64,000 nucleotides of DNA, taken from the NCBI RefSeq assembly GCF_003991155.1, contig NZ_CP031295.1. One strand, written 5' to 3'. The notes below the pieces were generated by a model. The model saw only the letters and a program-made list of their open reading frames with translations, did not search any database and was not told the origin of the DNA. A program made the translations under genes and the position numbers. The DNA is from Escherichia coli. Lineage in GTDB: Bacteria > Pseudomonadota > Gammaproteobacteria > Enterobacterales > Enterobacteriaceae. Positions 8,726 through 63,019 of this stretch are shown in pieces; the first letter of the stretch is position 1; each line of letters opens with the position of its first letter.

Positions 8726-9997
8726 TCAGAATGAAGCAATGGGGATCTCAGTCCATTGTGTTGTATACGAAGGCGAGAGCATTTCCCGTTTCATTTGCCA
8801 TTCAGGGGCGGTTCCTCGCCCCGCAAACCACACTTTCCCTTTTCCAGACTGGTTCAGTTCATCGAGTGTTTTCATTAACTTTTCGCTGTTTTTACGGGGC
8901 TGGATCTCATCAAATAATCCCGGCTGCGCTATACCCGATGGTGTGAAATCAGCCAGCATGACTCCTGCCTTCATATAGCGGTACCCTTCACGCCAGACAT
9001 GGTTTAACGCTCTGCATGCTGCGGCAATAATGTCCCGGCTGTCCTGTGTGGGTAATGGAAGCTTTTCCACAGCGGCATTGCTGTAACAGGGTTCTTTTAC
9101 TGCAAAGGGGGATGTCCGTACAAATGTCGTCACCTGCCGGCAATACTGACGCTCCCCACGTAGTTTCTCTGCGGCCCGCTCTGCATACTGAACAACAGCC
9201 TGGTGCATGGCATCTTTGTCTGTGATTCGTTCACCAAAACTGCGACTACAGACAATCTGCTGTTTTGCCGGTGGTGCTTCTTCCAGGGATATGCAGGACT
9301 CGCCGTTGAGTTCGCGTACCGTACGCTCAAGAATGACGCTGAAGTTTTTCCGGATGAATGCCGTGTTAGCCTGCGCCAGCTGCAGTGCTGTGTTAATACC
9401 CAGCGCATTCAGCTTTTCCGTCAGTCTGCGTCCTACTCCCCAGACCTCACCAACTGGCTGCAGCCCCAGTAGCTTCAAGATCCGATTACGGTTTTCTGCC
9501 TCCAGCGCGACCACACCGGAAAACTGTGGCCATTGCTTTGTTGCCCACTGTGCACTTTTAGCCAGCGTTTTTGTAGGCGCAATGCCCACCCCCATGGTGA
9601 GTCCTGTCCAGCTCTTTACCTGTTCCCTGAGCTGATGACCAAAAACCTCCGGAGAGATGCAATGATTTATCCCCCGCAAATCAATGAACATTTCATCAAT
9701 TGAGTAGGGCTCAACTGCGGGAGAAAGCGACTCCAGAACAGCCATGACCCGTTGGCTCATGCTGTGGTACAGCGCATAATTGCTGGAAAATACATGTATT
9801 TTCTTCTCCAGGCGCATCTGTCTCACCTGAAACCAGGGCTGCCCCATTCTGATGCCAAGGGCTTTTGCCTCCGGGCTGCGCGCGATCACACAGCCATCGT
9901 TATTGCTGAGTACGATGACCGGTTCGTTGCGAAGGTCCGGGCGGAAAACTTTTTCACATGAGGCGTAGAAACTGTTGATATCAGCCAGTGCAAACAT
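8726..9997 (-). CDS. impB: error-prone Y-family polymerase subunit (UmuC/ImpB family)
   Basis: MFALADINSFYASCEKVFRP... N-terminus typical of UmuC/MucB/ImpB; 423 aa. Confidence 0.9.
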   Translation of the reverse strand: MFALADINSFYASCEKVFRPDLRNEPVIVLSNNDGCVIARSPEAKALGIRMGQPWFQVRQMRLEKKIHVFSSNYALYHSMSQRVMAVLESLSPAVEPYSIDEMFIDLRGINHCISPEVFGHQLREQVKSWTGLTMGVGIAPTKTLAKSAQWATKQWPQFSGVVALEAENRNRILKLLGLQPVGEVWGVGRRLTEKLNALGINTALQLAQANTAFIRKNFSVILERTVRELNGESCISLEEAPPAKQQIVCSRSFGERITDKDAMHQAVVQYAERAAEKLRGERQYCRQVTTFVRTSPFAVKEPCYSNAAVEKLPLPTQDSRDIIAAACRALNHVWREGYRYMKAGVMLADFTPSGIAQPGLFDEIQPRKNSEKLMKTLDELNQSGKGKVWFAGRGTAPEWQMKREMLSPSYTTQWTEIPIASF

Positions 9998-11072: not shown

Positions 11073-11999
11073 ATGCCAAACTGGTGCTCGAATCGTATGC
11101 ATTTTTCTGGTGAACCGGCACAGATTGCTGAGATTAAACGACTGGCCAGCGGTGCCGTCACACCGCTTTATCGCCGCGCCACAAATGAAGGTATTCAGCT
11201 GTTTCTGGCCGGAAGTGCCGGACTTCTGCAGACCACTGAAGATGTGCAGTTTGAACCGTGCCCCGGACTGACGGATGCCGGACGTGGTGTTGTATCGCCG
11301 GAGAATATCGCGTTCACCCGCTGGCTGACACACCTGCAGAACGGTGTACTGCTGGATGAGCAAAACTGCCTGATGCTGCATGAACTCTGGCTGCAGAGTG
11401 GTACTGGCCAGCGTCGCTGGGAAGGATTACCGGATGAGGTCAGGGAAACCATCACCGTGCATTTCACCGCAAAAAGAGGTGACTGGTGTGGCTTCTGGAG
11501 TAACGAGGATGTATCGGTGTGGTGGAACCGTCTGTGTGACAATGTACTGCCGGAAAAAACCATGCCGTTTGACCTGCTGACGGTTCTGCCCACCCGCCTG
11601 GATGTTGAAGTGAATGGCTTTAACGGTGGTGTTCTGAACGGTGTTCCTTCTGCGTATCACTGGTATACGGAACAGTATGGCGTGAAGTGGCCTGTGGGGT
11701 ATGAGGTGAATATCAGCCGTCAGGGAGAAAACTTCATTCAAGTGGATTTCGACACGCCGTGGTGTCAGCCGGAAAGCAACGTTGTTGCAGAATTAAGCCG
11801 CCGTTTCGGCTGCACGCTGGAGCACTGGTACGCCGAACAGGGCTGCAATTTCTGTGGCTGGCAGCGATATGAGCGTGGAGAGCTTGTTGATGTGCTGTGG
11901 GGGGAACTGGAATGGTCTTCCCCGACAGATGATGATGAGCTGCCGGAAGTCACCGCGCCGGAGTGGATAGTCGACAAGGTGGCGCATTACGGGGGATGA
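11073..11999 (+). CDS. conserved leading-region protein, Cys/Trp-rich, unknown function (308 aa)
   Basis: ORF with GAGAGGAG RBS; many W and C residues (PNWCSNRMHF, WCGFWSNEDVSVWWNRLC); no enzymatic motif recognised. Confidence 0.65.
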   Translation: MPNWCSNRMHFSGEPAQIAEIKRLASGAVTPLYRRATNEGIQLFLAGSAGLLQTTEDVQFEPCPGLTDAGRGVVSPENIAFTRWLTHLQNGVLLDEQNCLMLHELWLQSGTGQRRWEGLPDEVRETITVHFTAKRGDWCGFWSNEDVSVWWNRLCDNVLPEKTMPFDLLTVLPTRLDVEVNGFNGGVLNGVPSAYHWYTEQYGVKWPVGYEVNISRQGENFIQVDFDTPWCQPESNVVAELSRRFGCTLEHWYAEQGCNFCGWQRYERGELVDVLWGELEWSSPTDDDELPEVTAPEWIVDKVAHYGG

Positions 12000-12012
12000 A
12001 GTATGACGGAGA

Positions 12013-12038
12013 CGGGCGGGCAACCGCCCGTTTCTTTT
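12013..12038 (+). terminator. rho-independent terminator
   Basis: GGGCGGGCAACCGCCCG hairpin followed by TTTCTTTT. Confidence 0.6.
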
Positions 12039-12383
12039 CCGACAAAGGATGTCGCCGTGCTCCTCTTTTTACTGCGCCGGCTGACGCGGCGCGGCAGGAA
12101 CGCTGCCTGTGGTCAGTGTCCCGCGTCCGGCGGGCACGGGACGGGCGCTTTTACTGCTCCCGGCTGGCACCGGTGACAGTGTACGCCAGCCTGTCGCCCT
12201 TTTCTGATGAACGCCCTTCAAGCCGCTTTCGCGGCATATTCTCGCCGTCAAAAAGACGACGGCTGCGATATTCCACGGTCGGCCTGACCCGTTACCGGAC
12301 GCGGTGAACAGCCCACAGGCAGCGGGGAACGGGCACCACAGGGGTGCCCTCCCGGTGCCCTCTGTAAGAGAAGGAGCGTTGTT

Positions 12384-13067
12384 ATGTCCCGTTTTGTCCT
12401 TGGTAACTGCATCGATGTTATGACGCGTATCCCTGATAACGCCATTGATTTCATATTAACTGACCCGCCATATCTCGTCGGTTTTCGTGACCGTTCCGGG
12501 CGCACCATCGCCGGCGATAAAACCGATGAATGGCTGCAACCGGCCTGTAATGAAATGTACCGCGTACTCAAAAAAGACGCGCTGATGGTGAGCTTCTACG
12601 GCTGGAACCGCGTCGATCGCTTTATGGCCGCCTGGAAAAATGCGGGATTCAGCGTTGTTGGTCACCTGGTCTTCACCAAAAACTACACATCGAAGGCCGC
12701 ATATGTGGGCTATCGCCACGAATGCGCCTACATCCTGGCAAAAGGCCGTCCACGTCTGCCACAAAACCCGCTGCCGGACGTGCTGGGCTGGAAATATTCT
12801 GGCAATCGTCATCACCCGACGGAAAAGCCCGTTACCAGCCTGCAACCGCTGATTGAGAGCTTCACACACCCGAACGCAATTGTGCTGGACCCGTTTGCAG
12901 GCAGCGGCTCAACCTGCGTCGCCGCCCTCCAGTCCGGACGCCGGTATATCGGTATCGAGCTGCTTGAGCAGTATCACCGTGCCGGGCAGCAACGCCTTGC
13001 CGCCGTGCAACGGGCCATGCAGCAGGGGGCCGCGAATGATGACTGGTTTATGCCGGAGGCTGCGTAA
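12384..13067 (+). CDS. orphan DNA methyltransferase, beta-class (motif IV before motif I)
   Basis: DPPY motif (ILTDPPYLVGF) near the N-terminus and SAM-binding FAGSGST near the C-terminus; no adjacent restriction gene. Confidence 0.85.
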   Translation: MSRFVLGNCIDVMTRIPDNAIDFILTDPPYLVGFRDRSGRTIAGDKTDEWLQPACNEMYRVLKKDALMVSFYGWNRVDRFMAAWKNAGFSVVGHLVFTKNYTSKAAYVGYRHECAYILAKGRPRLPQNPLPDVLGWKYSGNRHHPTEKPVTSLQPLIESFTHPNAIVLDPFAGSGSTCVAALQSGRRYIGIELLEQYHRAGQQRLAAVQRAMQQGAANDDWFMPEAA

Positions 13068-13787: not shown

Positions 13788-14564
13788 ATGAACGAAAACA
13801 GCACGCTGAACGCACTGATTTGTCGTCACGCCCGTAACCTGCTGCTGGCGCAGGGCTGGCCGGAAGAGACGGATGTTGACCAGCGAAATCCGAACTATCC
13901 GGGCTGGATCAGCATTTACGTGCGGCTGGATGCGCCCCGGCTGGCGACGTTACTTATCAACCGTCACGGCGGCGTACTGCCGCCGCTCCTGGCCTCCGCC
14001 ATTCAGAGACTGACCGGAACCGGGGCGGAACTGGTACTGTCCGGCAGTCAGTGGCAGTCGCTGCCGGTACTTCCGGCAGACGGAACGCAGGTGTCTTTCC
14101 CGTATGCCGGAGAATGGCTGACCGAAGACGAAATCAGGGCTGTTCTTGATGCGGTGCACGATGCGGTACGAAGCATCTGTTACCAGGTGGCAGAAGATGC
14201 GCGGCGTATCCGTGCGGCGCTGACCACCACCGGTCAGACGTTGCTGACCCGCCAGACGCGCCGCTTTCGCCTGGTCGTGAAGGAAAGCGATCACCCCTGC
14301 TGGCTCGATGAAGATGACGAAAACCTGCCCGTGGTGCTCGATGCCATCGTGAACCGGGGAGCACGTTTTTCGTCGGTGGAAATGTATCTGGTCAGTGAGT
14401 GTATTGAGCATATCCTGTCCAGTGGGCTGGCCTGCGATGTGCTGCGTATACCGGATGAACCGCCCCGCCGCTGGTTTGACCGTGGTGTTCTGCGGGAGGT
14501 GGTCCGGGAAGCCCGGACCGAAATCCGCAGCATGGCGGATGCCCTGGCAAAAATCCGGAAATGA
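13788..14564 (+). CDS. conserved leading-region protein (258 aa), unknown function
   Basis: Long ORF; start placed at MNENSTLN (ATG 13788) just downstream of a hairpin; no motif recognised. Confidence 0.6.
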
Positions 14565-14571
14565 TGACGAT

Positions 14572-14596
14572 GGCGGGGAAAATCCCCGCCTTTTTC
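14572..14596 (+). terminator. rho-independent terminator
   Basis: GGCGGGGAAAATCCCCGCC hairpin followed by TTTTT. Confidence 0.7.
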
Positions 14597-14980
14597 CTGC
14601 CGGTCCCCGGACAGAGCACAAAGGAAGTCGCCGCCGGCTCCGCTTTACCCGGCCATGCAGGGCATGGCCTTGTGGTTTTTCAGTTATGTGGCCTCAGCGT
14701 CGTGTGCGGGCTGTGCCGTGCCTCCATCTTAGCCGGGCTGGCGTTGATGCAAGGGTACGCTTCGCCGCTGCGGTCACCCGGTCCCTCCTTCCCGTCTGCC
14801 GTGATTTTCCGGTCGTTCACCCGCTCAGATTTCGCGGTCTCACCCTGCAACTCCCGTCAGCCGTGTGCGTCAGGCTGCGGCTTCCCTTGCGCCCCTGCAT
14901 CCCCGCCTGTTCGCCCGGCTTTTATGGAGGCACGGCACCGCCCGGTGTCGCGGAATATGTGAACAACGGAGGAAAACATC

Positions 14981-15406
14981 ATGCAATATGCGAAACCTGT
15001 CACTCTGAATGTTGAAGAGTGCGACCGTCTCTCCTTTCTGCCGTATCTGTTTGGCAACGATTTTCTGTATGCCGAGGCGTATGTGTACGCGCTGGCGCAA
15101 AAAATGATGCCGGAATATCAGGGAGGCTTCTGGCACTTCATCCGCCTACCGGACGGTGGCGGTTACATGATGCCGGATGGCGACCGTTTCCACATGGTGA
15201 ACGGTGCAAACTGGTTTGACCGTACCGTGAGTGCTGATGCCGCAGGCATCATCCTGACCTCCCTTGTGATTAACCGCCAGTTGTGGCTGTACCACGACAG
15301 CGGGGATGCAGGACTGACCCAGCTTTACCGGATGCGCGATGCGCAGTTGTGGCGTCACATCGAATTTCACCCCGAATGCAACGCGATTTACGCGGCTCTG
15401 GACTGA
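14981..15406 (+). CDS. klcA: KlcA/ArdB-family antirestriction protein
   Basis: 141 aa; [12 protein letters not shown]...[17 protein letters not shown]...[10 protein letters not shown] resembles KlcA/ArdB as recalled. Confidence 0.8.
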
Positions 15407-16224: not shown

Positions 16225-16870
16225 TGTTCCTGATGTTGTTGTTCCTTTATCTGCTGCTCTGATTCTGACTACTGCAGTGTTGTTCTGTCTGCCGGGCGCA
16301 CCTTCGGCTCCCGGCTGCCTGGCGGCATCCGGTCGTCAGGCCCGACTCCGACAGGCAGCTGCTGGCGCACCCGCCAGTCTCCGCCGAACCCGCTGGCGCG
16401 GTTTCGGGCTGTCGCTACGGTCCGATGCGTGAAAACCCCGGGCTTGCAGCGACCGTTCCGGTCGCGCCACCCTTGTCGCGCCGTGGCCTGCGCTCCCGGC
16501 ATCCCGGCAAAAGGCCGCCGGGATGTAAGGGGCAACGCCGTTTCGCGCACGCGCTCTCCGTCGTTGCGGCGGGTCCCTGCTCATTGCCTGCCGGTGCCAC
16601 ACACCCGTATGAGTCCCTGTCGCCGGGGGCTGATACAGCCACAACCTGCCGCACTGACTGTCCAGGGTAAATGAACAGCCCACAAAATTTTTTACCCAAA
16701 ACCCGGTAAAAAATTTTGCGTTCTGCCCAGGACAGGTGCGTCAGGCCGTGGCAGTGATGCCCCTTGCGGCGAAGGTTCTCAAACGGGTGAAGTTCATACC
16801 ACAGGGAATACAGCAGCAGGTTCCCGCGAAACGTCAAAACCGCGGCTCCCGAAACTCAACGGGTGATGTT
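16225..16870 (+). repeat. GC-rich structured repeat, copy 1 (Frpo/ssi-like single-strand promoter candidate)
   Basis: About 650 bp near-identical to 19510-20185 and 24965-25608; internal palindrome AAAATTTTTTACC...GGTAAAAAATTTT at 16684-16718. Confidence 0.7.
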
Positions 16871-17097
16871 CTTTAAAAATCAGGATTTATTTCAGACTCC
16901 GGCAATACGCATTTATGTGTTCTGTCAGTCATCCGGCTGGCAGGTAATGAGAACGCAGGAACAGAAGGAGGAAAACACCGGAGAACGTCAGACGCAGATA
17001 TGAAAAAAGCAGGTCAGGGACCTGCTTAATCCACACCGCAGAGACTGCACGAACAGTCTTTACGGTTTCATTAATTAACGTCATAAGAGGCTAAATT

Positions 17098-17328
17098 ATG
17101 ACAGTAAGTATTGTTTCACCTTCCGCAGCGGCTGTAAAGCCCCGCCGTCATCCCCGTTTCAGACGCGAAGACATCCCCGCGCCGGAAATTGACCCCGTGC
17201 TGAAAGCCTTCGGGCGACACATTGCCCGGAGTTTTCACCGGGGGCGTGGTGTACACATCCCCGCCATGAAAAACACGGCCTTCGGGCAGGTGCTCCGCAC
17301 ACTCGAACTGAAACGCGCTTTTAACTGA
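17098..17328 (+). CDS. small basic hypothetical protein (76 aa)
   Basis: First ORF downstream of repeat copy 1; AGAGG RBS. Confidence 0.5.
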   Translation: MTVSIVSPSAAAVKPRRHPRFRREDIPAPEIDPVLKAFGRHIARSFHRGRGVHIPAMKNTAFGQVLRTLELKRAFN

Positions 17329-17379
17329 TGAGGTGAGCCGCCCCGCGAGGGGCGGCAACAGACGGAAGGAGAACATTTT

Positions 17380-18741
17380 ATGACATTAGCAGCAATCACC
17401 ATGACCGCCCCGGAAGCCGCCAGCCCTGTGCAGATGTACCGCGCGACCTACTCACCGGATGACAACAAACTGCGCCTGTATGCCGTGTCACGTCTTGACC
17501 CGGAGACGTATAAAAAAGTGCATGATGCCGGTTTCCGCTGGGCACCAAAACAGGCGCTGTTTGTCGCGCCAGCCTGGACACCGGGCCGGGAAGACGTGCT
17601 CCTCTCACTTGCCGGAGAGATTGAGGATGAAGACAGCACGCTCGCTGAACGTCAGGAAGCACGGGCGGAGCGGTTTACCGGATACAGCGGAAAGCGGGCC
17701 AGTGAATCCGCACAGGCACTTGATGAAGTGGAAAGACTGGCCGCGATGATCCCGCCCGGTCAGCCCATTCTTGTGGGGCATCACAGCGAACGCCGCGCCC
17801 GTCGTGATGCGCAGCGTATTGAAAACGGCATGAAACGAGCCGTGATGCTCTTTGAACGTGCGGAATACTGGGAAGAGCGGGCGCGGTCGGCACTGCTTCA
17901 CGCGAAGTATAAAGAACGTCCGGACGTTCGCTGGCGTCGTATCAAAAAAATCGAAGCTGATTTGCGCAAGGCTGAAAAGACCATCGCGCAGTCGCAGAAA
18001 TATCTGACGATGTGGCGGGCTGAATCGCTGGATCTGAATATGGCAAAACTCATCAGCAGTCATGACCATATCAGCGCCTGTTTCCCGCTGGATACGTATC
18101 CGCGCCCGGCAGAAAAAAGCCAGTATGAAGGAAGTCGATCGTTATGGTCGGCCCTGGATGATGACATCATCACCACGGAGCAGGCCCGCGAAATTGCGAT
18201 CCGCTGTCATGAACGGCAGATTCAGCGTCAGCAACGCTGGGTTAACCACTATCAGAACCGCCTGATCTATGAGCGTGCCATGCTGGACGAAAGCGGCGGC
18301 GTGGTTACCCGGACACAGGATTTTGAGCCGGGCGGACAGGTTTTCAGCCGGGGCGAGTGGCTGACTATCATCCGCGTGAACAAAAGCAACGGGGCGGTGA
18401 GTTCAGTCACAACGCCGAATTACAGTTTTCTCGGGTACAGCGGCACGATGAAAGTGACGCCCGATCGCATTACGGACTACAAAGCACCATCGGCAGAAGA
18501 GGCTGCCGTCGCCAGTCAGGCCGCTAAGCGTCCGCCGGTAGTCAACTATCCGGGGGAAGGTTTCCGGGAAATGACAAAGGCACAGTGGGCCGCCCTGCCC
18601 CGGGACTGTAAGGCCGTGCGCAGTGTGGCAGAAGCAGAAGACCACGGGGCATACCGGTACCGCCGCACAATGGACAATAATTTCCGCCTGGTGAATGTGT
18701 ATATCTCCGACATGAAAATCACGGAAATCCCACAGAAATAA
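17380..18741 (+). CDS. conserved leading-region protein (453 aa), unknown function
   Basis: Long ORF with GGAGAA RBS; Arg/Glu-rich central region; no catalytic motif recognised. Confidence 0.7.
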   Translation: MTLAAITMTAPEAASPVQMYRATYSPDDNKLRLYAVSRLDPETYKKVHDAGFRWAPKQALFVAPAWTPGREDVLLSLAGEIEDEDSTLAERQEARAERFTGYSGKRASESAQALDEVERLAAMIPPGQPILVGHHSERRARRDAQRIENGMKRAVMLFERAEYWEERARSALLHAKYKERPDVRWRRIKKIEADLRKAEKTIAQSQKYLTMWRAESLDLNMAKLISSHDHISACFPLDTYPRPAEKSQYEGSRSLWSALDDDIITTEQAREIAIRCHERQIQRQQRWVNHYQNRLIYERAMLDESGGVVTRTQDFEPGGQVFSRGEWLTIIRVNKSNGAVSSVTTPNYSFLGYSGTMKVTPDRITDYKAPSAEEAAVASQAAKRPPVVNYPGEGFREMTKAQWAALPRDCKAVRSVAEAEDHGAYRYRRTMDNNFRLVNVYISDMKITEIPQK

Positions 18742-18788
18742 GGTATATCCCCCCGGGAAAATCCCCGGGGGATGACGGAGATAATGAT

Positions 18789-19352
18789 ATGCACAGTCAG
18801 TTAAGAGAACGTATCCGGCTGATGCGCGCAAGGCTGGATAACGCCGCGCCGGTTGCTGAAATCCGGGCTGAATCTCAGCTTTTTGTGACTCCTGCCCCGG
18901 TCTGTGATCGCCTGGTGATGCTGGCGGAGATCAGCAACCGTGATCACATTCTGGAACCCTCTGCCGGCACCGGGGCCATACTGCGGGCGATTCGGGATAC
19001 CGCGCCGGGGGCCATGTGTGATGCGGTGGAAATCAACAGCGGGCTGGTCCGGTATCTGCGGGAAAATTTTAACGGTGTCAGGGTTCAGTGTGGCGACTTC
19101 ATGGAATGGCAGCCGGTGCAGTATTACAGCCGGGTTATCATGAATCCGCCGTTCAGCCACGGGCAGGATATCCGGCATATCCTGCGGGCCTTTTCCCTGT
19201 TGCGTCCGGGGGGCGTGCTGGTCGCCGTCTGTCTCAACGGACCACGCCAGCAGGAGAAGCTGTTACCGTTTTCTGACGTCCGCGAGGAGCTGCCGCGCGG
19301 CACGTTTGCTTATACCGATGTCCCGACGATGATTATTCGTCTGCGTGCCTGA
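18789..19352 (+). CDS. small orphan DNA methyltransferase, gamma-like order (motif I before motif IV)
   Basis: SAM-binding LEPSAGTGAIL followed by VIMNPPFSHGQD (NPPF); only 187 aa. Confidence 0.75.
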   Translation: MHSQLRERIRLMRARLDNAAPVAEIRAESQLFVTPAPVCDRLVMLAEISNRDHILEPSAGTGAILRAIRDTAPGAMCDAVEINSGLVRYLRENFNGVRVQCGDFMEWQPVQYYSRVIMNPPFSHGQDIRHILRAFSLLRPGGVLVAVCLNGPRQQEKLLPFSDVREELPRGTFAYTDVPTMIIRLRA

Positions 19353-19509
19353 AGACGCCGGGCAGGCGGGAGGATAAATGCCCGTCTGCCCGCGCCGGGA
19401 AAAGACCGCGCGCCGGTGGCGCTGAAAGGGGCCGCGCTCACGCGCCGCCCCTTTCATTACGCGGACGTTCTGATGGGGGCTTCTGTTTCTTCATGCCTGT
19501 CATTTGTCT

Positions 19510-20185
19510 GTTACTGATGTTGTTGTTCCTGCTACTGTTCTTCTTTTTCCTGCTGCTCTGATTCTGACTACTGCAGTGTTGTCCTGTCTGCCGGGCGCAC
19601 CTTCGGCTCCCGGCTGCCTGGCGGCATCCGGTCGTCAGGCCCGACTCCGACAGGCAGCTGCTGGCGCACCTGCCAGTCTCCGCCGAACCCGCTGGCGCGG
19701 TTTCGGGCTGTCGCTACGGTCCGATGCGTGAAAACCCCTGGCTTGCAGCGACCGTTCCGGTCGCGCCGCCTCTGTCGCGCCGTGGCCTGCGCTCCTGGCA
19801 TCCCGGCAAAAGACCGCCGGGATGTAAGGGGCAACGCCGTTTCGCAAACCGCGCTTCACGTCGTTGCGGCGGGTCCCTGCCCGTTGTTCTGTCCGGTGCC
19901 ATTCACCTGTTTAAGCCCCTGTCGCCGGGGGCAAAGACAGCCACAACCGTCTCCGCCAGTCCAGGGGTGAAATGTACATCCCGCAAAACTTTTTGCCCAA
20001 AAGCAGGCAAAAACTTTTGCGGGATGTACATTTCACCCCCGGACAGTCGTTTCCGTCCGTGGCAGTGATGCCCCTTGCGGCGAAGGTTCTCAAAAAGGTG
20101 ATGGTGAATACCGGAGGGAACAAAAGGCAGGTCCCCGCAAAACGTCAAAACCGCGGCTCCCGAAACTCAAAAGATGATGGGGGCT
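19510..20185 (+). repeat. GC-rich structured repeat, copy 2 (Frpo/ssi-like), upstream of ssb
   Basis: Near-identical to copies 1 and 3; long hairpin 19962-20041 (GGGGTGAAATGTACATCCCGCAAAACTTTTTGCC ... GGCAAAAACTTTTGCGGGATGTACATTTCACCCC) with a single central mismatch. Confidence 0.7.
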
Positions 20186-20212
20186 GAAAACATCAACAGA
20201 AGGAGGCACATC

Positions 20213-20752
20213 ATGGCAGTTCGTGGCATTAACAAGGTCATTCTCGTAGGACGCCTGGGAAAAGATCCGGAAGTCCGTTACATCCCCAACGGGGGCGCAG
20301 TGGCAAACCTGCAGGTGGCCACATCAGAAAGCTGGCGTGACAAACAGACGGGGGAGATGCGGGAGCAGACAGAATGGCATCGTGTGGTGCTGTTCGGCAA
20401 GCTCGCGGAAGTGGCAGGTGAATATCTGCGCAAGGGCGCGCAGGTCTACATCGAAGGTCAGCTTCGCACCCGTAGCTGGGAGGATAACGGTATCACCCGT
20501 TACGTCACCGAAATTCTTGTTAAGACCACGGGCACCATGCAGATGCTGGGACGTGCCGCAGGTGCTCAGACTCAGCCGGAAGAGGGGCAACAGTTCAGCG
20601 GTCAGTATCAGCCGGAACCACAGGCGGAGGCCGGTACGAAAAAAGGAGGCGCAAAAACGAAAGGCCGTGGACGTAAGGCCACGCAGCCGGAGTCGCAGCC
20701 GCAACCGCCGGAGAGTGACGATTACGGGTTTTCAGATGATATCCCGTTCTGA
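20213..20752 (+). CDS. ssb: plasmid single-stranded DNA-binding protein
   Basis: [25 protein letters not shown]-fold N-terminus, Gly/Gln-rich linker, acidic tail DDIPF; AGGAGG RBS. Confidence 0.95.
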
Positions 20753-20766
20753 ACGACTGACTGTGA

Positions 20767-21042
<276 letters not shown>

Positions 21043-21106
21043 GAGAGGTGCCGGACGGGGATCACGTCCGGCAGACATACAACCACCCCGGTCAAAGGAG
21101 AAATAT

Positions 21107-23065
21107 ATGTCAGTTACAGAGTCTAAGGTAAAAACGGAGCGTAAATCCAGCCGTAAACCTGCAAAAACGCAGGAAACAGTCCTGTCGGCCCTGCTGGCGG
21201 AGACGGCTGAAGTGAGCGTGCCGCTGGCCTCGCTGATTAAGTCACCGCTGAATGTGCGCACGGTGCCGTATTCTGCGGAGTCCGTCAGCGAACTGGCAGA
21301 GTCCATTAAGGGCGTCGGCCTGCTGCAGAATCTGGTTGTTCATGCCCTGCCAGGTGACCGTTACGGTGTCGCCGCAGGCGGTCGCCGACTGGCAGCACTC
21401 AACATGCTGGCAGAGCGCAACATCCTTCCGGCTGACTGGCCTGTCCGCGTGAAGGTTATTCCGCAGGAACTGGCGACTGCCGCATCAATGACTGAAAACG
21501 GTCATCGTCGGGATATGCACCCTGCCGAACAGATTGCCGGATTCCGCGCAATGGCGCAGGAAGGCAAAACACCTGCACAAATCGGTGATTTGCTGGGCTA
21601 TTCACCCCGCCACGTTCAGCGAATGCTGAAACTGGCAGACCTTGCGCCTGTCATCCTCGATGCGCTGGCAGAAGACCGCATCACCACAGAGCACTGTCAG
21701 GCGCTGGCGCTGGAGAACGACACCGCGCGTCAGGTGCAGGTGTTTGAAGCCGCCTGTCAGTCGGGATGGGGCGGTAAACCGGAAGTACAGACCATTCGTC
21801 GTCTGGTGACCGAAAGTGAAGTGGCGGTGGCGGGGAACAGTAAATTCCGCTTCGTGGGGGCTGATGCCTTCTCGCCAGACGAACTGCGCACCGATTTGTT
21901 CAGCGACGACGAGGGTGGCTATGTGGACTGCGTGGCGCTCGATGCCGCCCTGCTGGAAAAACTCCAGGCTGTCGCAGAGTTCCTTCGGGAAGCCGAAGGC
22001 TGGGAATGGTGCGCCGGACGCATGGAGCCTGTCGGTGAGTGCCGTGAGGATGCCGGAACATACCGCTGTCTGCCGGAGCCGGAAGCGGTGCTGACCGAGG
22101 CGGAAGAAGAACGTCTGAACGAACTGATGGCACGTTACGACGCGCTGGAAAACCAGTGTGAGGAATCTGACCTGCTGGAAGCAGAAATGAAGCTGATGCG
22201 CTGCATGGCGAAGGTCAGAGCGTGGACGCCGGAGATGCGTGCCGGAGGTGGAGTGGTGGTGTCCTGGCGTTATGGAAACGTATGTGTCCAGCGTGGTGTG
22301 CAGTTACGCAGTGAGGATGATGCGGCTGACGACGCTGACCGCACGGAACAGGTGCAGGAAAAAGCGTCAGTGGAGGAAATCAGTCTGCCACTGCTGACGA
22401 AAATGTCCTCAGAGCGCACGCTGGCAGTCCAGGCAGCACTGATGCAGCAACCGGACAAATCCCTGACACTGCTGGCATGGACGCTCTGCCTGAATGTGTT
22501 TGGCAGCGGAGCGTACAGTAAACCAGCACAAATCAGCCTGGAATGTAAACATTATTCGCTGACCAGCGATGCGCCATCGGGGAAGGAAGGTGCCGCATTC
22601 ATGGCGCTGATGGCAGAAAAAGCCCGTCTTGCTGCCCTGTTACCGGAGGGATGGTCACGGGACATGACGACATTCCTGTCACTCAGTCAGGAGGTGCTGT
22701 TATCCCTGCTCAGTTTCTGCACCGCATGCAGCCTTAACGGTGTCCAGACCCGTGAGTATGGTCACACGTCACGCAGTCCGCTGGACACGCTGGAGAGCGC
22801 CATCGGTTTTCACATGCGCGACTGGTGGCAGCCGACAAAAGCAAACTTCTTCGGACACCTGAAAAAGCCGCAGATTATCGCAGCCCTGAATGAGGCAGGA
22901 CTGTCCGGTGCTGCACGGGATGCAGAGAAGATGAAGAAAGGTGATGCGGCTGAACATGCAGAGCACCATATGAAAGACAACCGCTGGGTGCCTGGCTGGA
23001 TGTGTGCACCACATCCACAGACGGATACCACTGAACGCACCGATAACCTGGCTGATGCCGCCTGA
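21107..23065 (+). CDS. large ParB/Srx-domain protein of the leading region (652 aa)
   Basis: N-terminal ParB-like motif GLLQNLVVHALPGDRYGVAAGGRRLAAL; long acidic and Cys-containing C-terminal extension. Confidence 0.8.
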   Translation: MSVTESKVKTERKSSRKPAKTQETVLSALLAETAEVSVPLASLIKSPLNVRTVPYSAESVSELAESIKGVGLLQNLVVHALPGDRYGVAAGGRRLAALNMLAERNILPADWPVRVKVIPQELATAASMTENGHRRDMHPAEQIAGFRAMAQEGKTPAQIGDLLGYSPRHVQRMLKLADLAPVILDALAEDRITTEHCQALALENDTARQVQVFEAACQSGWGGKPEVQTIRRLVTESEVAVAGNSKFRFVGADAFSPDELRTDLFSDDEGGYVDCVALDAALLEKLQAVAEFLREAEGWEWCAGRMEPVGECREDAGTYRCLPEPEAVLTEAEEERLNELMARYDALENQCEESDLLEAEMKLMRCMAKVRAWTPEMRAGGGVVVSWRYGNVCVQRGVQLRSEDDAADDADRTEQVQEKASVEEISLPLLTKMSSERTLAVQAALMQQPDKSLTLLAWTLCLNVFGSGAYSKPAQISLECKHYSLTSDAPSGKEGAAFMALMAEKARLAALLPEGWSRDMTTFLSLSQEVLLSLLSFCTACSLNGVQTREYGHTSRSPLDTLESAIGFHMRDWWQPTKANFFGHLKKPQIIAALNEAGLSGAARDAEKMKKGDAAEHAEHHMKDNRWVPGWMCAPHPQTDTTERTDNLADAA

Positions 23066-23119
23066 TAAACAACCACACCGCCCCGCCGGAGACGGGGCGG
23101 CAGCAAGGGAGATACCGTG

Positions 23120-23554
23120 ATGAAAACTGAACTGACCCTGAATGTATTACAGACCATGAGCGCACAGGAATATGAAGATATCCGGGCAGCCGGAAGTGAT
23201 GAACGTCGTGAGCTGACACACGCCGTGATGCGGGAACTGGATGCGCCGGACAACTGGACGATGAACGGCGAGTACGGCAGCGAGTTTGGCGGATTTTTCC
23301 CCGTCCAGGTCCGTTTCACGCCTGCCCACGAACGTTTCCACCTGGCGTTATGTTCACCGGGCGATGTCTCTCAGGTCTGGGTGCTGGTTCTGGTGAATGC
23401 CGGTGGTGAGCCGTTTGCGGTGGTTCAGGTACAGCGGCGGTTTGCACCGGAAGCCGTCAGCCATTCACTGGCACTGGCGGCGTCACTGGACGCGCAGGGG
23501 TACAGCGTCAGTGACATCATCCATATCCTGATGGCGGAAGGAGGTCAGGCATGA
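23120..23554 (+). CDS. psiB: plasmid SOS inhibition protein PsiB
   Basis: [46 protein letters not shown]... matches F PsiB as recalled. Confidence 0.9.
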
Positions 23555-24270
23555 GCGCACGTTCACAGGCACTGGTTCCTCTCAGCACAGAGCAACAGGC
23601 CGCATGGCGGGCGGTGGCGGAGACCGAAAAACGCCGCCATCAGGGTAACACGCTGGCTGAATATCCGTATGCGGGGGCGTTTTTCCGCTGTCTGAACGGA
23701 AGCCGCAGGATATCGCTGTCTGACCTGCGATTTTTCATGCCGTCCCTGACCGCAGAAGAACTGCACGGCAACCGTCTTCAGTGGCTGTATGCCATCGATG
23801 TGCTGATTGAAACACAGGGCGAGGTCTGCCTCCTTCCCCTTCCCGGTGATGCAGCAGAGCGCTTGTTCCCGTCGGTGCGGTTTCGTGTCAGGGAACGCAG
23901 TCGCCATAAATCCGCGCTGGTCATGCAGAAGTACAGCCGCCAGCAGGCGAGGGAGGCAGAGCAGAAAGCCCGTGCGTACCAGGCGCTGGTCGCTCAGGCT
24001 GAAATCGAACTGGCATTCCATTCGCCGGAAACAGTCGGAAGCTGGCATGCACGCTGGAGTGACCGGGTGGCAGAGCATGACCTGGAAACCCTGTTCTGGC
24101 AGTGGGGCGAGCGTTTTCCGTCACTGGCCGGAATGGAACGCTGGCAGTGGCAGGATATGCCATTCTGGCAGGTCATCGCAGAGGCTGGTATGGCGGCAAG
24201 GGTGGTCGGTCATGCTGTTCGTGAGATGGAGCGGTGGATGGTGCCGAACAAACTCCGGGAGGCAGCGTGA
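23551..24270 (+). CDS. psiA: PsiA
   Basis: Translationally coupled to psiB; 239 aa matching F PsiA as recalled. Confidence 0.9.
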
Positions 24271-24491
24271 TGCGGCAACAATCACACGGATTTCCCGTGA
24301 ACGGTCTGAATGAGCGGATTATTTTCAGGGAAAGTGAGTGTGGTCAGCGTGCAGGTATATGGGCTATGATGTGCCCGGCGCTTGAGGCTTTCTGCCTCAT
24401 GACGTGAAGGTGGTTTGTTGCCGTGTTGTGTGGCAGAAAGAAGATAGCCCCGTAGTAAGTTAATTTTCATTAACCACCACGAGGCATCCCT

Positions 24492-24704
24492 ATGTCTAGT
24501 CCACATCAGGATAGCCTCTTACCGCGCTTTGCGCAAGGAGAAGAAGGCCATGAAACTACCACGAAGTTCCCTTGTCTGGTGTGTGTTGATCGTGTGTCTC
24601 ACACTGTTGATATTCACTTATCTGACACGAAAATCGCTGTGCGAGATTCGTTACAGAGACGGACACAGGGAGGTGGCGGCTTTCATGGCTTACGAATCCG
24701 GTAA
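24492..24704 (+). CDS. mok: mok-like overlapping leader ORF of the hok locus (flmC-like)
   Basis: ORF overlapping hok in another frame, as in hok/sok-type loci. Confidence 0.45.
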
Positions 24705-24708
24705 GTAG
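24550..24708 (+). CDS. hok: Hok-family membrane toxin (F FlmA-like, 52 aa)
   Basis: [52 protein letters not shown] read directly from 24550. Confidence 0.85.
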
Positions 24709-24964
24709 CAACCTGGAGGCGGGCGCAGGCCCGCCTTTTCAGGACTGATGCTGGTCTGACTACTGAAGCGCCTTTATAAAGGGGCTGCTGGTTCGCCGGT
24801 AGCCCCTTTCTCCTTGCTGATGTTGTACGGGCATGAACAACCTGACTTCAGGAAGGTCGTTTCCCTTCAGGAACGGGGATGAACGCGCGCCTGCGGCGCC
24901 CGTTCTTTTCCCCCGCCTTCTCTGGTTATGGCCTGTCAGAAATCACATCACCTTCCCTGTGATT

Positions 24965-25608
24965 ATTCTCTTTTTCTTCCTGCTCTGATTCTGACTACTG
25001 CAGTGTTGTCCTGTCTGCCGGGCGTACCTTCGGCTCCCGGCTGCCTGGCGGCATCCGGTCGTCAGGCCCGACTCCGACAGGCAGCTGCTGGCGCACCTGC
25101 CAGTCTCCGCCGAACCCGCTGGCGCGGTTTCGGGCTGTCGCTACGGTCCGATGCGTGAAAACCCCTGGCTTGCAGCGACCGTTCCGGTCGCGCCGCCTCT
25201 GTCGCGCCGTGACCTGCGCTCCCGGCATCCCGGCAAAAGGCGCCGGGATGTAAGGCGCAACGCCGTTTCGCAAACCGCGCTTCACGTCGTTGCGGCGGGT
25301 CCCTGCCCGTTGTTGTGTCCGGTGCCATTCACCAGTTTAAGCCCCTGTCGCCGGGGGCATAGACAGCCACAACCGTCTCCGCCAGTCCAGGGGTGAAATG
25401 CACATCCCGCAAAACTTTTTGCCCAGAAGCAGGCAAAAACTTTTGCGGTCTGCCCCCGGACAGTCGTTTCCGGCCGTGGCAGTGATGCCCCATGCGGCGA
25501 AGGTTCTCAAACAGGTGATGGTGAATACCGGAGGGAACAAAAGGCAGGTCCCCGCAAAACGTCAAAACCGCGGCTCCCGAAACTCAACAGATGATGGGGG
25601 CTGAAAAC
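24965..25608 (+). repeat. GC-rich structured repeat, copy 3 (Frpo/ssi-like)
   Basis: Near-identical to copy 2; palindrome GCAAAACTTTTTGCC...GGCAAAAACTTTTGC at 25407-25448. Confidence 0.7.
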
Positions 25609-25628: not shown

Positions 25629-25916
25629 ATGAGTACCCGAAATATCCACGTTAACACCGCGTCGTACACGCTTCTTGTTGCCGGGAAGAAAAAAAACACC
25701 GGGGAAGAGTGGGACGTCCTGGAATTCAGCAGCCTGACTGAGCTGAAAAAATATCGCAAAAGCCACCCGGAAAAGATGGCCTTCAGTTATAGCTACGCGC
25801 TCAGTCAGGGTGTGGATAAGCAGTTCCGCCATATCAACATTGCGGAAGCCGATCACTTCAAACAGTTCCTGCGTCAGATTAAGCGTGCCGGCCTCGATAT
25901 CCGGGCGATCTGCTGA
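25629..25916 (+). CDS. small conserved hypothetical protein (95 aa)
   Basis: First ORF after repeat copy 3; GAGAGGAG RBS. Confidence 0.6.
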   Translation: MSTRNIHVNTASYTLLVAGKKKNTGEEWDVLEFSSLTELKKYRKSHPEKMAFSYSYALSQGVDKQFRHINIAEADHFKQFLRQIKRAGLDIRAIC

Positions 25917-26033
25917 CCGGATGTGATGAATATCCCTCCTGATTGTTGCAATCTTGTTAATGGAGATCGGGGGGATGATATTAAGCGGAAAAATTTTTTA
26001 TTAAATTTATTCTTTCATAAAGGAGTAGCTGTT

Positions 26034-26855
26034 ATGCGATTAGCTTCCCGTTTTGGTCGGTATAATTCCATCCGCCGTGAACGTCCTTTAACGGATGATG
26101 AATTAATGCAGTTCGTGCCTTCGGTATTTTCCGGTGATAAACATGAGTCCCGGAGTGAACGTTATACGTATATTCCAACAATCAATATCATCAATAAGTT
26201 ACGTGATGAAGGTTTCCAGCCATTCTTTGCCTGTCAGAGTCGGATTCGTGATTTGGGACGTCGCGAATACAGTAAACATATGTTACGTCTTCGCAGGGAA
26301 GGGCATATTAACGGACAGGAAGTTCCTGAAATTATCCTGCTTAATTCACATGATGGTTCATCCAGTTATCAGATGATCCCCGGAATTTTTCGTTTTGTCT
26401 GCACAAATGGCCTGGTGTGCGGAAATAATTTTGGCGAAATCCGCGTTCCACATAAAGGTGATATTGTCGGGCAGGTTATCGAGGGAGCGTATGAAGTGCT
26501 CGGTGTCTTTGATAAGGTCACTGATAATATGGAGGCGATGAAAGAAATTCATCTTAACAGTGACGAGCAACATTTATTTGGCAGAGCTGCACTGATGGTC
26601 AGGTATGAAGATGAAAATAAAACGCCAGTGACACCTGAACAGATAATTACTCCCCGTCGTCGGGAAGACAAACAGAACGATCTCTGGACAACCTGGCAGC
26701 GGGTTCAGGAGAATATGATAAAAGGTGGATTATCGGGGCGAAGTGCCTCCGGGAAAAATACCAGGACAAGAGCCATTACAGGTATTGATGGTGATATAAG
26801 AATCAACAAGGCGTTATGGGTGATTGCCGAACAGTTCAGAAAGTGGAAGTCATGA
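26034..26855 (+). CDS. conserved leading-region protein (273 aa), unknown function
   Basis: ORF with AAGGAG RBS; start placed at MRLASRFGRY; family often annotated only as a DUF in F-like plasmids (recollection, unverified). Confidence 0.7.
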   Translation: MRLASRFGRYNSIRRERPLTDDELMQFVPSVFSGDKHESRSERYTYIPTINIINKLRDEGFQPFFACQSRIRDLGRREYSKHMLRLRREGHINGQEVPEIILLNSHDGSSSYQMIPGIFRFVCTNGLVCGNNFGEIRVPHKGDIVGQVIEGAYEVLGVFDKVTDNMEAMKEIHLNSDEQHLFGRAALMVRYEDENKTPVTPEQIITPRRREDKQNDLWTTWQRVQENMIKGGLSGRSASGKNTRTRAITGIDGDIRINKALWVIAEQFRKWKS

Positions 26856-27661: not shown

Positions 27662-28074
27662 TTTTCCACCTCTGGTGACTTTATCCGTAAATAATTTAAC
27701 CCACTCCACAAAAAGGCTCAACAGGTTGGTGGTTCTCACCACCAAAAGCACCACACCCCACGCAAAAACAAGTTTTTGCTGATTTTTCTTTATAAATAGA
27801 GAGTTATGACAAATTAGTTCTTCTTGCTCTCTTTGTGATATTTAAAAAAGCGGTGTTGGCGCAGCTACAACACCGCGCCGACACCGCTTTTTAGGGGTGG
27901 TACTGACTATTTTCATAAAAAACATCATCTTATATTAGGGGTGCTGCTAGCGGCGCGGTGTGTTTTTTTACAGGACGCCCCTGGGGGCGCTGCTAGCGGT
28001 GCGTCCCTGTTTGCATTATGAATTTTAGTGTTTCGAAATTAACTTTATTTTATGTTCAAAAAAGGTAATCTCTA
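27662..28074 (-). other. oriT: origin of transfer (oriT), F-type, nic site near 27752/27753 on the reverse strand
   Basis: Reverse complement of 27740-27775 reads TTTGCGTGGGGTGTGGTGCTTTTGGTG (F nic region as recalled); inverted repeats and AT-rich tracts between gene X and traM. Confidence 0.85.
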
Positions 28075-62189: not shown

Positions 62190-62869
62190 CGAAAAAAGCA
62201 GCCTTCATTACTCCAGGAGTCAGAAGGCTGAAAGGAGTTTATGAGATTTGCTTTTTTTAATATCCGGTCGGGCAGTATGACCGGCCAGTTCTGAGTAGCA
62301 CAGAGTTTTTTCCGTATTAAGTCGCGATTTTATATTTTGTGATTAATTTCACAAAATAAGGTCTTATTCAATGTGTGCTGCGATATTCAGGGGGGCTGAA
62401 ATACAGGTGCCATTTATCTGATATGGAGAATAACATGAGGAAATATATTCCACTGGTATTATTTATCTTTTCATGGCCGGTATTGTCTGCAGATGTTCAC
62501 GGGCAGATTTATGCACCAGACAGAATGAATGTTAATTAGTTTATGAATACAACAGGGGCTGATCAGCAATCACCGGAACATCGTAGCTGACGCGTTCGCA
62601 ATGCTCAGTTGTCCCCCCCGGAAACGGGAAAAAGTAAGTTTTCCCCCGCTCCCGGCGTTTTTGTAACAAAAACAGGCAAATGGGGGTAATAGTCAGCAAC
62701 AGGGAATGTGGTATTATCGCGGCGGGTGTTTGAGCCTTTCTGGTTCAGGCAAGACGCAGGTACCAGAAATGCGAAGACCCCACTCGTTAATCCATTAACT
62801 CGTGAGGTCTGCATGAAGTACCTTAACACTACTGATTGTAGCCTCTTCTTTGCTGAGAGGTCAAAGTTT

Positions 62870-63019
62870 ATGACGAAATATGCCCTTATCGGGTTGCTCG
62901 CCGTGTGCGCCACGGTGTTGTGTTTTTCACTGATATTCAGGGAACGGTTATGTGAGCTGAATATTCACAGAGGAAATACAGTGGTGCAGGTAACTCTGGC
63001 CTACGAAGCACGGAAGTAA
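62870..63019 (+). CDS. srnB: Hok/Gef-family toxin (SrnB/PndA-like, 49 aa) with in-frame upstream extension from 62813
   Basis: MTKYALIGLLAVCATVLCFSLIFRERLCELNIHRGNTVVQVTLAYEARK resembles the Hok toxin at 24550. Confidence 0.75.
   Translation: MTKYALIGLLAVCATVLCFSLIFRERLCELNIHRGNTVVQVTLAYEARK

Follow-up and report, generated by a model that had tools for sequence, protein, structure and literature searches.

Frpo of the F plasmid is a stem-loop whose -35 and -10 boxes are available to sigma-70 RNA polymerase when the DNA is coated with SSB; the resulting RNA can either be translated or act as a primer for DNA synthesis (Masai and Arai 1997, as summarized in PMC7690428 and PMC8406263). F carries two such elements, Frpo1 and Frpo2, both of which have been tested in vivo; when either is deleted, transconjugants no longer make the downstream proteins early on (PMC9849209). 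SSB-stimulated transcription by RNA polymerase holoenzyme from the single-stranded form only, with zygotic induction in recipients, is known for the F and IncI1 homologues (PMC9849209, PMC12672017, PMC11541004), the start sites of ssi1-3 in pESBL have been confirmed by 5' rapid amplification of cDNA ends (RACE; PMC12672017), and complementary-strand synthesis in vivo draws in part on transcripts from single-stranded DNA (ssDNA) promoters (bioRxiv 10.64898/2026.01.09.698686). Frpo-like repeats in three dispersed copies, each at the head of a leading-region operon, have been reported in ColIb-P9 (Bates 1999, as cited in PMC9849209 and PMC12672017) and in pO26-CRL125 (PMC3817090), and a survey has collected 13,089 homologues of Frpo from 6,006 elements (PMC11541004). 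Here we analyze three copies of a repeat in a stretch of 64,000 nucleotides (nt) from Escherichia coli (RefSeq assembly GCF_003991155.1, contig NZ_CP031295.1; hereafter the window) and compare them with these systems. The Frpo element and its occurrence in multiple dispersed copies are already described, and the window adds another example. A preliminary description of this DNA, made from the sequence alone, judged the triplication worth documenting; that judgement does not stand, as the arrangement has been published for ColIb-P9 and pO26-CRL125 and the same three-copy region of 10 kb is present in at least 1316 plasmid records.

Three leading-region repeats and their match to F Frpo

A repeat search of the window found direct repeats of approximately 630 bp at approximately 16225-16859, 19524-20170 and 24951-25587. 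Two repeat families have three copies each, one of 300 nt beginning at 16225, 19524 and 24951 (90-95% identity) and one of 156 nt ending at 16880, 20191 and 25608, and the three-copy repeat is beyond chance. From left to right each unit comprises a CT-rich tract that is only partially conserved, a left segment of approximately 177 bp (16254-16432, 19553-19731 and 24980-25158; 98-99% identity among the three copies), a central block of approximately 107 bp (93-95%), a hairpin region of approximately 325 bp, and a ribosome-binding site with its start codon. The preliminary description had proposed three near-identical repeats; they lie where it placed them, but near-identity holds only between copies 2 and 3 (95.6% over the whole unit) and for the left 177 bp or so of all three, copy 1 being 84% identical to the other two overall and 72-77% identical in the hairpin half. 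Its placement of the repeats 20-230 bp upstream of plus-strand gene clusters agrees with the distances that we measure from hairpin base to ATG, which are approximately 240 nt for copy 1 (ATG at 17098), 44 nt for copy 2 (20213) and 43 nt for copy 3 (25629). No Rfam family matched the repeats themselves.

Our reference was Frpo in the form of the published sequence of F ssiD (351 nt, D90178, from supplement 4 of PMC11541004). With blastn, all three copies match it on the minus strand over the full 351 nt, at 95.7% identity for copy 3 (25600-25251), 94.7% for copy 2 (20183-19825) and 80.4% for copy 1 (16857-16526). On this homology, and on the strand, fold, covariation and position reported here, each repeat very probably carries a class-1 (Frpo/ssi-type) single-stranded DNA promoter. 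Recognition by RNA polymerase, specificity for the single strand and priming would be expected by analogy with the published F and ColIb-P9 homologues.

The setting of the repeats is that of an F-like plasmid (IncF, MOBF). The 10-kb region has matches in thousands of enterobacterial plasmids, the best of which are 99.8% identical and typed IncFIA/FIB/FIC, MOBF and MPF_F. Rfam matches in the window include the traJ leader and FinP at 28.5 kb, two hok/sok loci, and CopA. The sequence GGGTGT/GGTGCTTTTGGTGG, which we take to be the F oriT nic sequence with its nick at approximately 27752, lies on the minus strand at 27758-27739, and the minus strand is therefore the transferred (T) strand. The leading region is 9-27.7 kb, and the minus strand enters the recipient 5'-first, running toward lower coordinates. 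Since the genes behind all three repeats are on the plus strand, the T strand is their template. A scan of 19350-20300, from the methyltransferase gene to ssb, found no conventional double-strand sigma-70 promoter, the kind of start site that the preliminary description had set against its own proposal.

The hairpin, its covariation and the folding strand

In all three units the minus strand, treated as single-stranded DNA, has a fold well beyond the stability of shuffled sequence (z -16.9 for copy 2, -11.5 for copy 3 and -9.3 for copy 1). One long imperfect hairpin of 316-328 nt dominates each fold, at -94 to -119 kcal/mol; the F Frpo stem-loop, the reference for class-1 length, measures approximately 328 nt. 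The preliminary description, which suggested this minus-strand folding, had noticed an internal palindrome in each copy; the palindromes are real and form only the tip of the imperfect hairpin of approximately 320 nt.

Covariation was assessed across eight homologues, namely the three window copies, two from F and, out of PMC11541004, one Serratia sequence and two from insect metagenomes. Of the cells in the 96 pairs of their consensus structure, 94.6% are paired; sliding the partners by 1-3 columns lowers this to 41-49%. Changes on both sides occur in 14 pairs, as against 2-5 in the slid controls, and the observed covariation values were reached in 0 of 500 shuffles. An exchange of TACC/GGTA for TGCC/GGCA, which the preliminary description had read as compensatory and as a sign of selection on structure, is confirmed at alignment pair 162/193 (GC:3, AU:2) and is one of the 14 double-change pairs.

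The strand that folds was addressed by a strand-symmetric alignment of arm against arm in 11 sequences, which is independent of any predicted structure. On the T strand, transition mismatches number 91 of the G.T kind versus 30 of the A.C kind (26 versus 5 in the three window copies), an excess that points to the T strand as the folding strand. Moreover, the minus strand exceeds the plus strand in stability by 9-16 kcal/mol, and the two observations together argue for selection on the transferred DNA strand, not on mRNA. The assignment to the Frpo/ssi type in the preliminary description is thus upheld by the ssiD match over 351 nt, the T strand as template, a fold beyond shuffles, covariation, the strand-specific mismatch asymmetry and the lack of a sigma-70 promoter in the scanned stretch upstream of ssb.

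The same data bear on an alternative in which the hairpin is no DNA promoter and works at the RNA level, forming a structured 5' leader or an attenuator in mRNAs with starts further upstream. The plus strand folds well too, at -152 to -182 kcal/mol under RNA parameters, and each unit sits directly behind the previous operon, so that read-through RNA would include it. However, the 91 to 30 mismatch count favors the minus strand, where a plus-sense RNA would give the opposite, both parameter sets assign the minus strand the greater stability, and deletion and RACE data from homologues put the starts at the hairpins (PMC9849209, PMC12672017). We therefore regard an RNA leader as very improbable.

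In copy 2, the preliminary description saw a stem of about 34 bp with one central mismatch. The single mismatch (C.C/G.G) is there, but the tip stem is 38 bp long, formed by the inverted repeat 19959-20044, and is a rare variant. In all other members examined the plan is an AT-rich tip stem of 17-18 bp, a bulge of 8-10 nt on the 3' arm containing CAT(T/C)T, and then CCCC-TGGAC; the long stem of copy 2 arises because GATGTACATTTCA, at 20023-20035, pairs with the normally bulged motif. Relative to the closest plasmid, which shares 99.8% identity with the window over 10 kb, copy 2 has a net 9 nt of extra sequence. Among 1835 matching plasmid records, only approximately 46 have the long stem version, defined by an identity of 95% or more to an 81-nt query. 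It looks like a template-switch correction, or "perfection", of a quasi-palindrome.

A sliding fold of the transferred strand in 300-nt windows placed the strongest minima, of -80 to -104 kcal/mol, at seven places: the class-1 hairpins, the GC-rich flanks to their left, and two further sites. The flank minimum is separate in copy 1 and merged with the hairpin minimum in copies 2 and 3. The two further hairpins, also on the minus strand, each lie directly upstream of a gene: one (11989-12392) reaches the start of a DNA methylase gene (12384), the other (14561-14982) an antirestriction gene (14981). Both are in a block that shares 94.6% identity with F. Their positions are those of the class 3 and class 2 promoters, respectively (ssp3 and ssp2; PMC12672017, bioRxiv 10.1101/2025.04.03.647016), ssp2 having been published upstream of ardB/klcA and ssp3 upstream of an M.EcoGIX-like methylase, and the hairpin at 14561-14982 resembles the "Frpo" 4' sequence of PMC11541004. 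These hairpins share with the three repeats the same principle and region and no sequence similarity; furthermore, ssp2 reportedly blocks complementary-strand synthesis, whereas no such report exists for class 1. Taken together, the leading region is predicted to hold five single-strand promoters, not three.

Table 1. Coordinates of the repeat units, the operons behind them and related features in the window.
Feature	Coordinates	Strand	Remarks
Copy 1 hairpin, probable class-1 ssDNA promoter, "type 1" variant	16540-16855	-	tip loop ~16697-16704; fold -94 kcal/mol, 115 pairs
Copy 2 hairpin	19839-20166	-	tip loop ~19998-20005; fold -119 kcal/mol, 130 pairs
Copy 3 hairpin	25265-25583	-	tip loop ~25424-25431; fold -104 kcal/mol
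GATGTACATTTCA in copy 2	20023-20035	+	exact inverted copy of 19967-19979; closest plasmid has TCTG there
Copy 1 GC-rich flank	16254-16532		A allele to 16432, then central block; 3' of the hairpin on the T strand
Copy 2 GC-rich flank	19553-19831		A allele and central block containing GCGACCGTTCCGGTCGC
Copy 3 GC-rich flank	24980-25257		A allele and central block
Pyrimidine-rich (CT) tract before the copy 2 unit	19480-19552	+	from sequence and alignment; analogous tracts before copies 1 and 3
Operon behind copy 1	17098-19352	+	orf76 17098-17328; DUF3560 protein 17380-18741; small class I S-adenosylmethionine (SAM) methyltransferase 18789-19352
Operon behind copy 2	20213-24270	+	ssb, DUF905 (yfjA), ParB-like (yfjB), psiB, psiA
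Operon behind copy 3	25629-26855	+	orf95 (ygeA homologue), orf273 (DUF932, ygeB homologue)
oriT nic region	27739-27758	-	exact match to F GGGTGT/GGTGCTTTTGGTGG; single occurrence; 0.01 expected by chance

Candidate promoter geometry and a model for early expression

The search for promoter boxes used a sigma-70 weight matrix on the T strand of the eight homologues and also took in hairpin drawings of 16 diverse members and a table of 3'-arm motifs from 112 units. Three candidate pairs were seen. On the 5' arm, TTGACG-17-TTTTGT lies near the base, and TTGAGA-17/18-CATCAC or TAAACC lies further in and ends in an internal loop; on the 3' arm, TGGAC(A/T)-17/18-TGTCTT, or a variant of it, ends in the same internal loop. 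The preliminary description had proposed a look for -35/-10-like elements in the stems; these pairs are candidates for them, and none is near consensus in both boxes.

We lean toward the 3'-arm candidate on three grounds. Firstly, the F, IncI1, Salmonella and metagenome types have nothing in common other than TGGAC and its distance from the loop. Secondly, the published Frpo2-acrIIA4 construct starts at plus-strand GTCCCTGTCGCC and so contains the inner hairpin only, with the TGGAC motif and the internal loop (PMC11541004). Thirdly, the best sigma-70 match of the class-2-like hairpin at 14561-14982, TTGCAT-15-TAAGAT, is likewise on the 3' arm, with its -35 paired and its -10 partly open. We therefore slightly favor a model in which the promoter lies on the 3' arm of the T-strand hairpin and fires toward the base, with TGGAC(A/T) as the -35 element and the conserved internal loop as a pre-melted -10. 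In this model the candidate -35, which is universally conserved, would be for instance the complement of 19958-19963, and the candidate -10 would be the internal loop 17-18 nt further on, such as TGTCTT, the complement of 19934-19939. Under this geometry the ssb transcript would start near 20072-20078.

During conjugation, the T strand would enter the recipient 5'-first from the nick at approximately 27752, so that each operon would enter before its own promoter. Approximately 320 nt of each single-stranded repeat would then fold into the long imperfect hairpin, whose stem would mimic duplex promoter DNA. The sigma-70 RNA polymerase of the host would bind this stem on SSB-coated DNA and transcribe the T strand toward its 5' end, in the plus direction, resulting in a burst of expression of the orf76-DUF3560-methyltransferase, ssb-psiB-psiA and orf95-orf273 operons. 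The same RNA could also prime synthesis of the complementary strand, and conversion to double-stranded DNA would destroy the hairpin and switch the promoter off.

Several observations weigh against this interpretation. As set out above, the weight matrix yielded no candidate near consensus in both boxes on the T strand of the eight homologues; the best matches to consensus are those of the 5' arm, which are weak and have -10 parts that vary among homologues, and the 3'-arm candidate has a poor -10. The covariation of the hairpin is support and not proof, the sample being small and its members related. Copy 1 lies approximately 240 nt from its gene, and the spacer, which is found in this copy only, holds a known antisense RNA. 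Control of the orf76 operon may therefore differ from that of the other two. In copy 2, the extra sequence that pairs the conserved bulge may alter activity.

The antisense RNA in the copy 1 spacer is matched by Rfam as AS-pc01 (RF02875, antisense to pHK01_035) at 17004-17103 on the minus strand, overlapping the orf76 leader and start codon. AS-pc01 may silence the orf76 operon once the plasmid is double-stranded.

A further possibility is that the repeats are mainly priming signals (ssi) for the complementary strand, with gene expression incidental. Frpo was isolated as ssiD, and its RNA primes DNA polymerase III in vitro (Masai and Arai 1997, as described in PMC7690428); in addition, rifampicin-sensitive early conversion has been seen near ssp1/Frpo sites in vivo (bioRxiv 10.64898/2026.01.09.698686). 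Conversely, the hairpins of copies 2 and 3 lie just upstream of an operon start codon with a Shine-Dalgarno sequence, at 43-44 nt and in the correct orientation, and deletion of Frpo from F removes early protein production (PMC9849209). The two roles are compatible, and priming as the main function, with expression incidental, seems to us as improbable as the RNA leader.

Mosaic units, the copy 1 module and a conserved flank

Synteny identifies copy 3 as the orthologue of F Frpo1 (ssiD, ssp1a), upstream of the ygeA and ygeB homologues orf95 and orf273, and copy 2 as the positional orthologue of F Frpo2 (ssp1b), upstream of ssb. The gene order of the F Frpo2 operon is the order found behind copy 2 (PMC9849209). 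A hok/sok locus (flm) lies between Frpo1 and Frpo2 in F, as a hok/sok locus does between copies 2 and 3. The window has two sok (hok/sok-type) loci, at 24376-24552 and 62724-62882, the first of them between psiA and copy 3, the position of flm in F. It has been suggested that flm protects the segment between the repeats in F against deletion (PMC9849209).

F has no counterpart of copy 1 or of the 3.3-kb orf76-DUF3560-methyltransferase module behind it, the antirestriction cluster running straight into Frpo2. Moreover, F Frpo2 is itself a mosaic, with an outer stem of the copy-2 type and an inner hairpin of the copy-1 type (NC_002483 9175-9646 compared with window 16433-16859 and 19732-20191). 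This mosaic structure implies that the units have recombined and that the 3.3-kb module was lost or gained through the repeats; recombination between such repeats has been remarked upon before (PMC3817090, PMC9849209). A single-crossover origin of F Frpo2 was considered and rejected, as its 2-1-2 pattern of types needs a second exchange or a different ancestor. The left flank of approximately 177 bp in F is a different allele, only 39-46% identical to the window copies.

The three repeats ssi1-ssi3 of ColIb-P9/IncI1 (R1-R3 of pO26-CRL125) are likewise dispersed upstream of leading-region operons on the T strand, and their hairpins follow the same plan as those of the window, with an AT-rich tip stem, a 3'-arm bulge with CAT(T/C)T, CCCC-TGGAC and an internal loop. 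They differ in their outer stem, which is unrelated and has neither TTGACG nor TTGAGA, in the genes that they serve (ardA and others) and in belonging to another plasmid group. A more distant parallel is the minus-strand origin of M13/f1, which like Frpo uses hairpins in SSB-coated ssDNA as a promoter mimic for sigma-70 RNA polymerase, with the RNA priming DNA synthesis, and which has no sequence similarity to the repeats. From the M13/f1 origin the phage obtains just a short primer, and no genes are expressed from it. Frpo was found through its ability to replace the M13 complementary-strand origin (PMC7690428).

The GC-rich flank of approximately 280 bp to the left of the hairpin lies outside the 351-nt Frpo. 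No other part of the unit is as well conserved, and the flank occurs at 95-100% identity in more than 5000 plasmid records. In 112 units from metagenomes and plasmids, the metagenome units having been gathered by a 23-mer scan, it takes the form of two main alleles, A (that of the window) and B (that of F), which combine freely with hairpin types. Among 12 multi-unit contigs, nine have one left-flank allele throughout and three are mixed; a uniform allele within a plasmid is thus a tendency, not a rule. For a scan of 298 Gb of contigs with the 16-mer GCGACCGTTCCGGTCG, more than 100 chance matches are expected; the hits were mostly in unrelated GC-rich genomes, with only five real loci.

Relative to shuffles, the copy 2 flank folds with z -5.0 as T-strand DNA and z -4.0 as plus-sense RNA; no strand preference emerged, the differences between the folds of the two strands being small and not agreeing between DNA and RNA parameters. 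We found no function assigned to the flank in the literature surveyed. It is conceivable, if rather doubtful, that the flank works as a module in its own right, such as a terminator of the Rho type or an insulator for the preceding operon, or a structural brake or priming site that times double-strand conversion. Primosome- or primase-type ssi signals (phiX174 n'-pas or G4 type), which are sets of hairpins that PriA or DnaG recognizes on SSB-coated DNA, were considered as candidates for the flank as well.

On the plus strand the CT tract before each unit is rich in pyrimidines and poor in G, the F version (approximately 9000-9060 of NC_002483) consisting almost entirely of C and T; read on the T strand, the tract is a purine run. 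The tract resembles a Rho loading site. The short contigs 139 and 178 of Streptomyces morookaense DSM 40503 contain a stretch 94% identical to the repeat unit, most likely a contamination of that assembly by E. coli plasmid DNA.

In the annotation of the closest plasmid, the Prokaryotic Genome Annotation Pipeline (PGAP) places small hypothetical proteins inside the repeats (window 19504-19731, 19972-20178, 24928-25158 and 25398-25604). A protein-coding left flank was rejected, as the variable sites of the open reading frame at 19504-19731 are distributed 21/57, 18/57 and 23/58, without codon periodicity, and copy 1 lacks the start; this frame is probably a spurious gene call. That the repeats are functionless duplications or junctions of cassette recombination, or encode these annotated proteins, would accommodate the mosaic units with their independently assorting left-segment alleles and hairpin types, the missing copy 1-copy 2 module and hybrid Frpo2 of F, and the PGAP calls, but it is the least likely of the alternatives given the compensatory changes that preserve the hairpin, the spread of the flank at near-identity through so many plasmid records, and a reading frame with neither codon periodicity nor a start conserved in copy 1.

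Three points may be of some use beyond the further example of a class-1 promoter that the window provides: the copy 1 module, the recombining mosaic units and the conserved flank next to the hairpin. The module behind copy 1 (orf76, the DUF3560 protein and the small methyltransferase) is likely an early-expressed cassette, which F lacks. Single-stranded DNA promoters control the first minutes of plasmid establishment, through suppression of the SOS response, protection of the single strand and anti-restriction, and they therefore bear on the spread of resistance plasmids.

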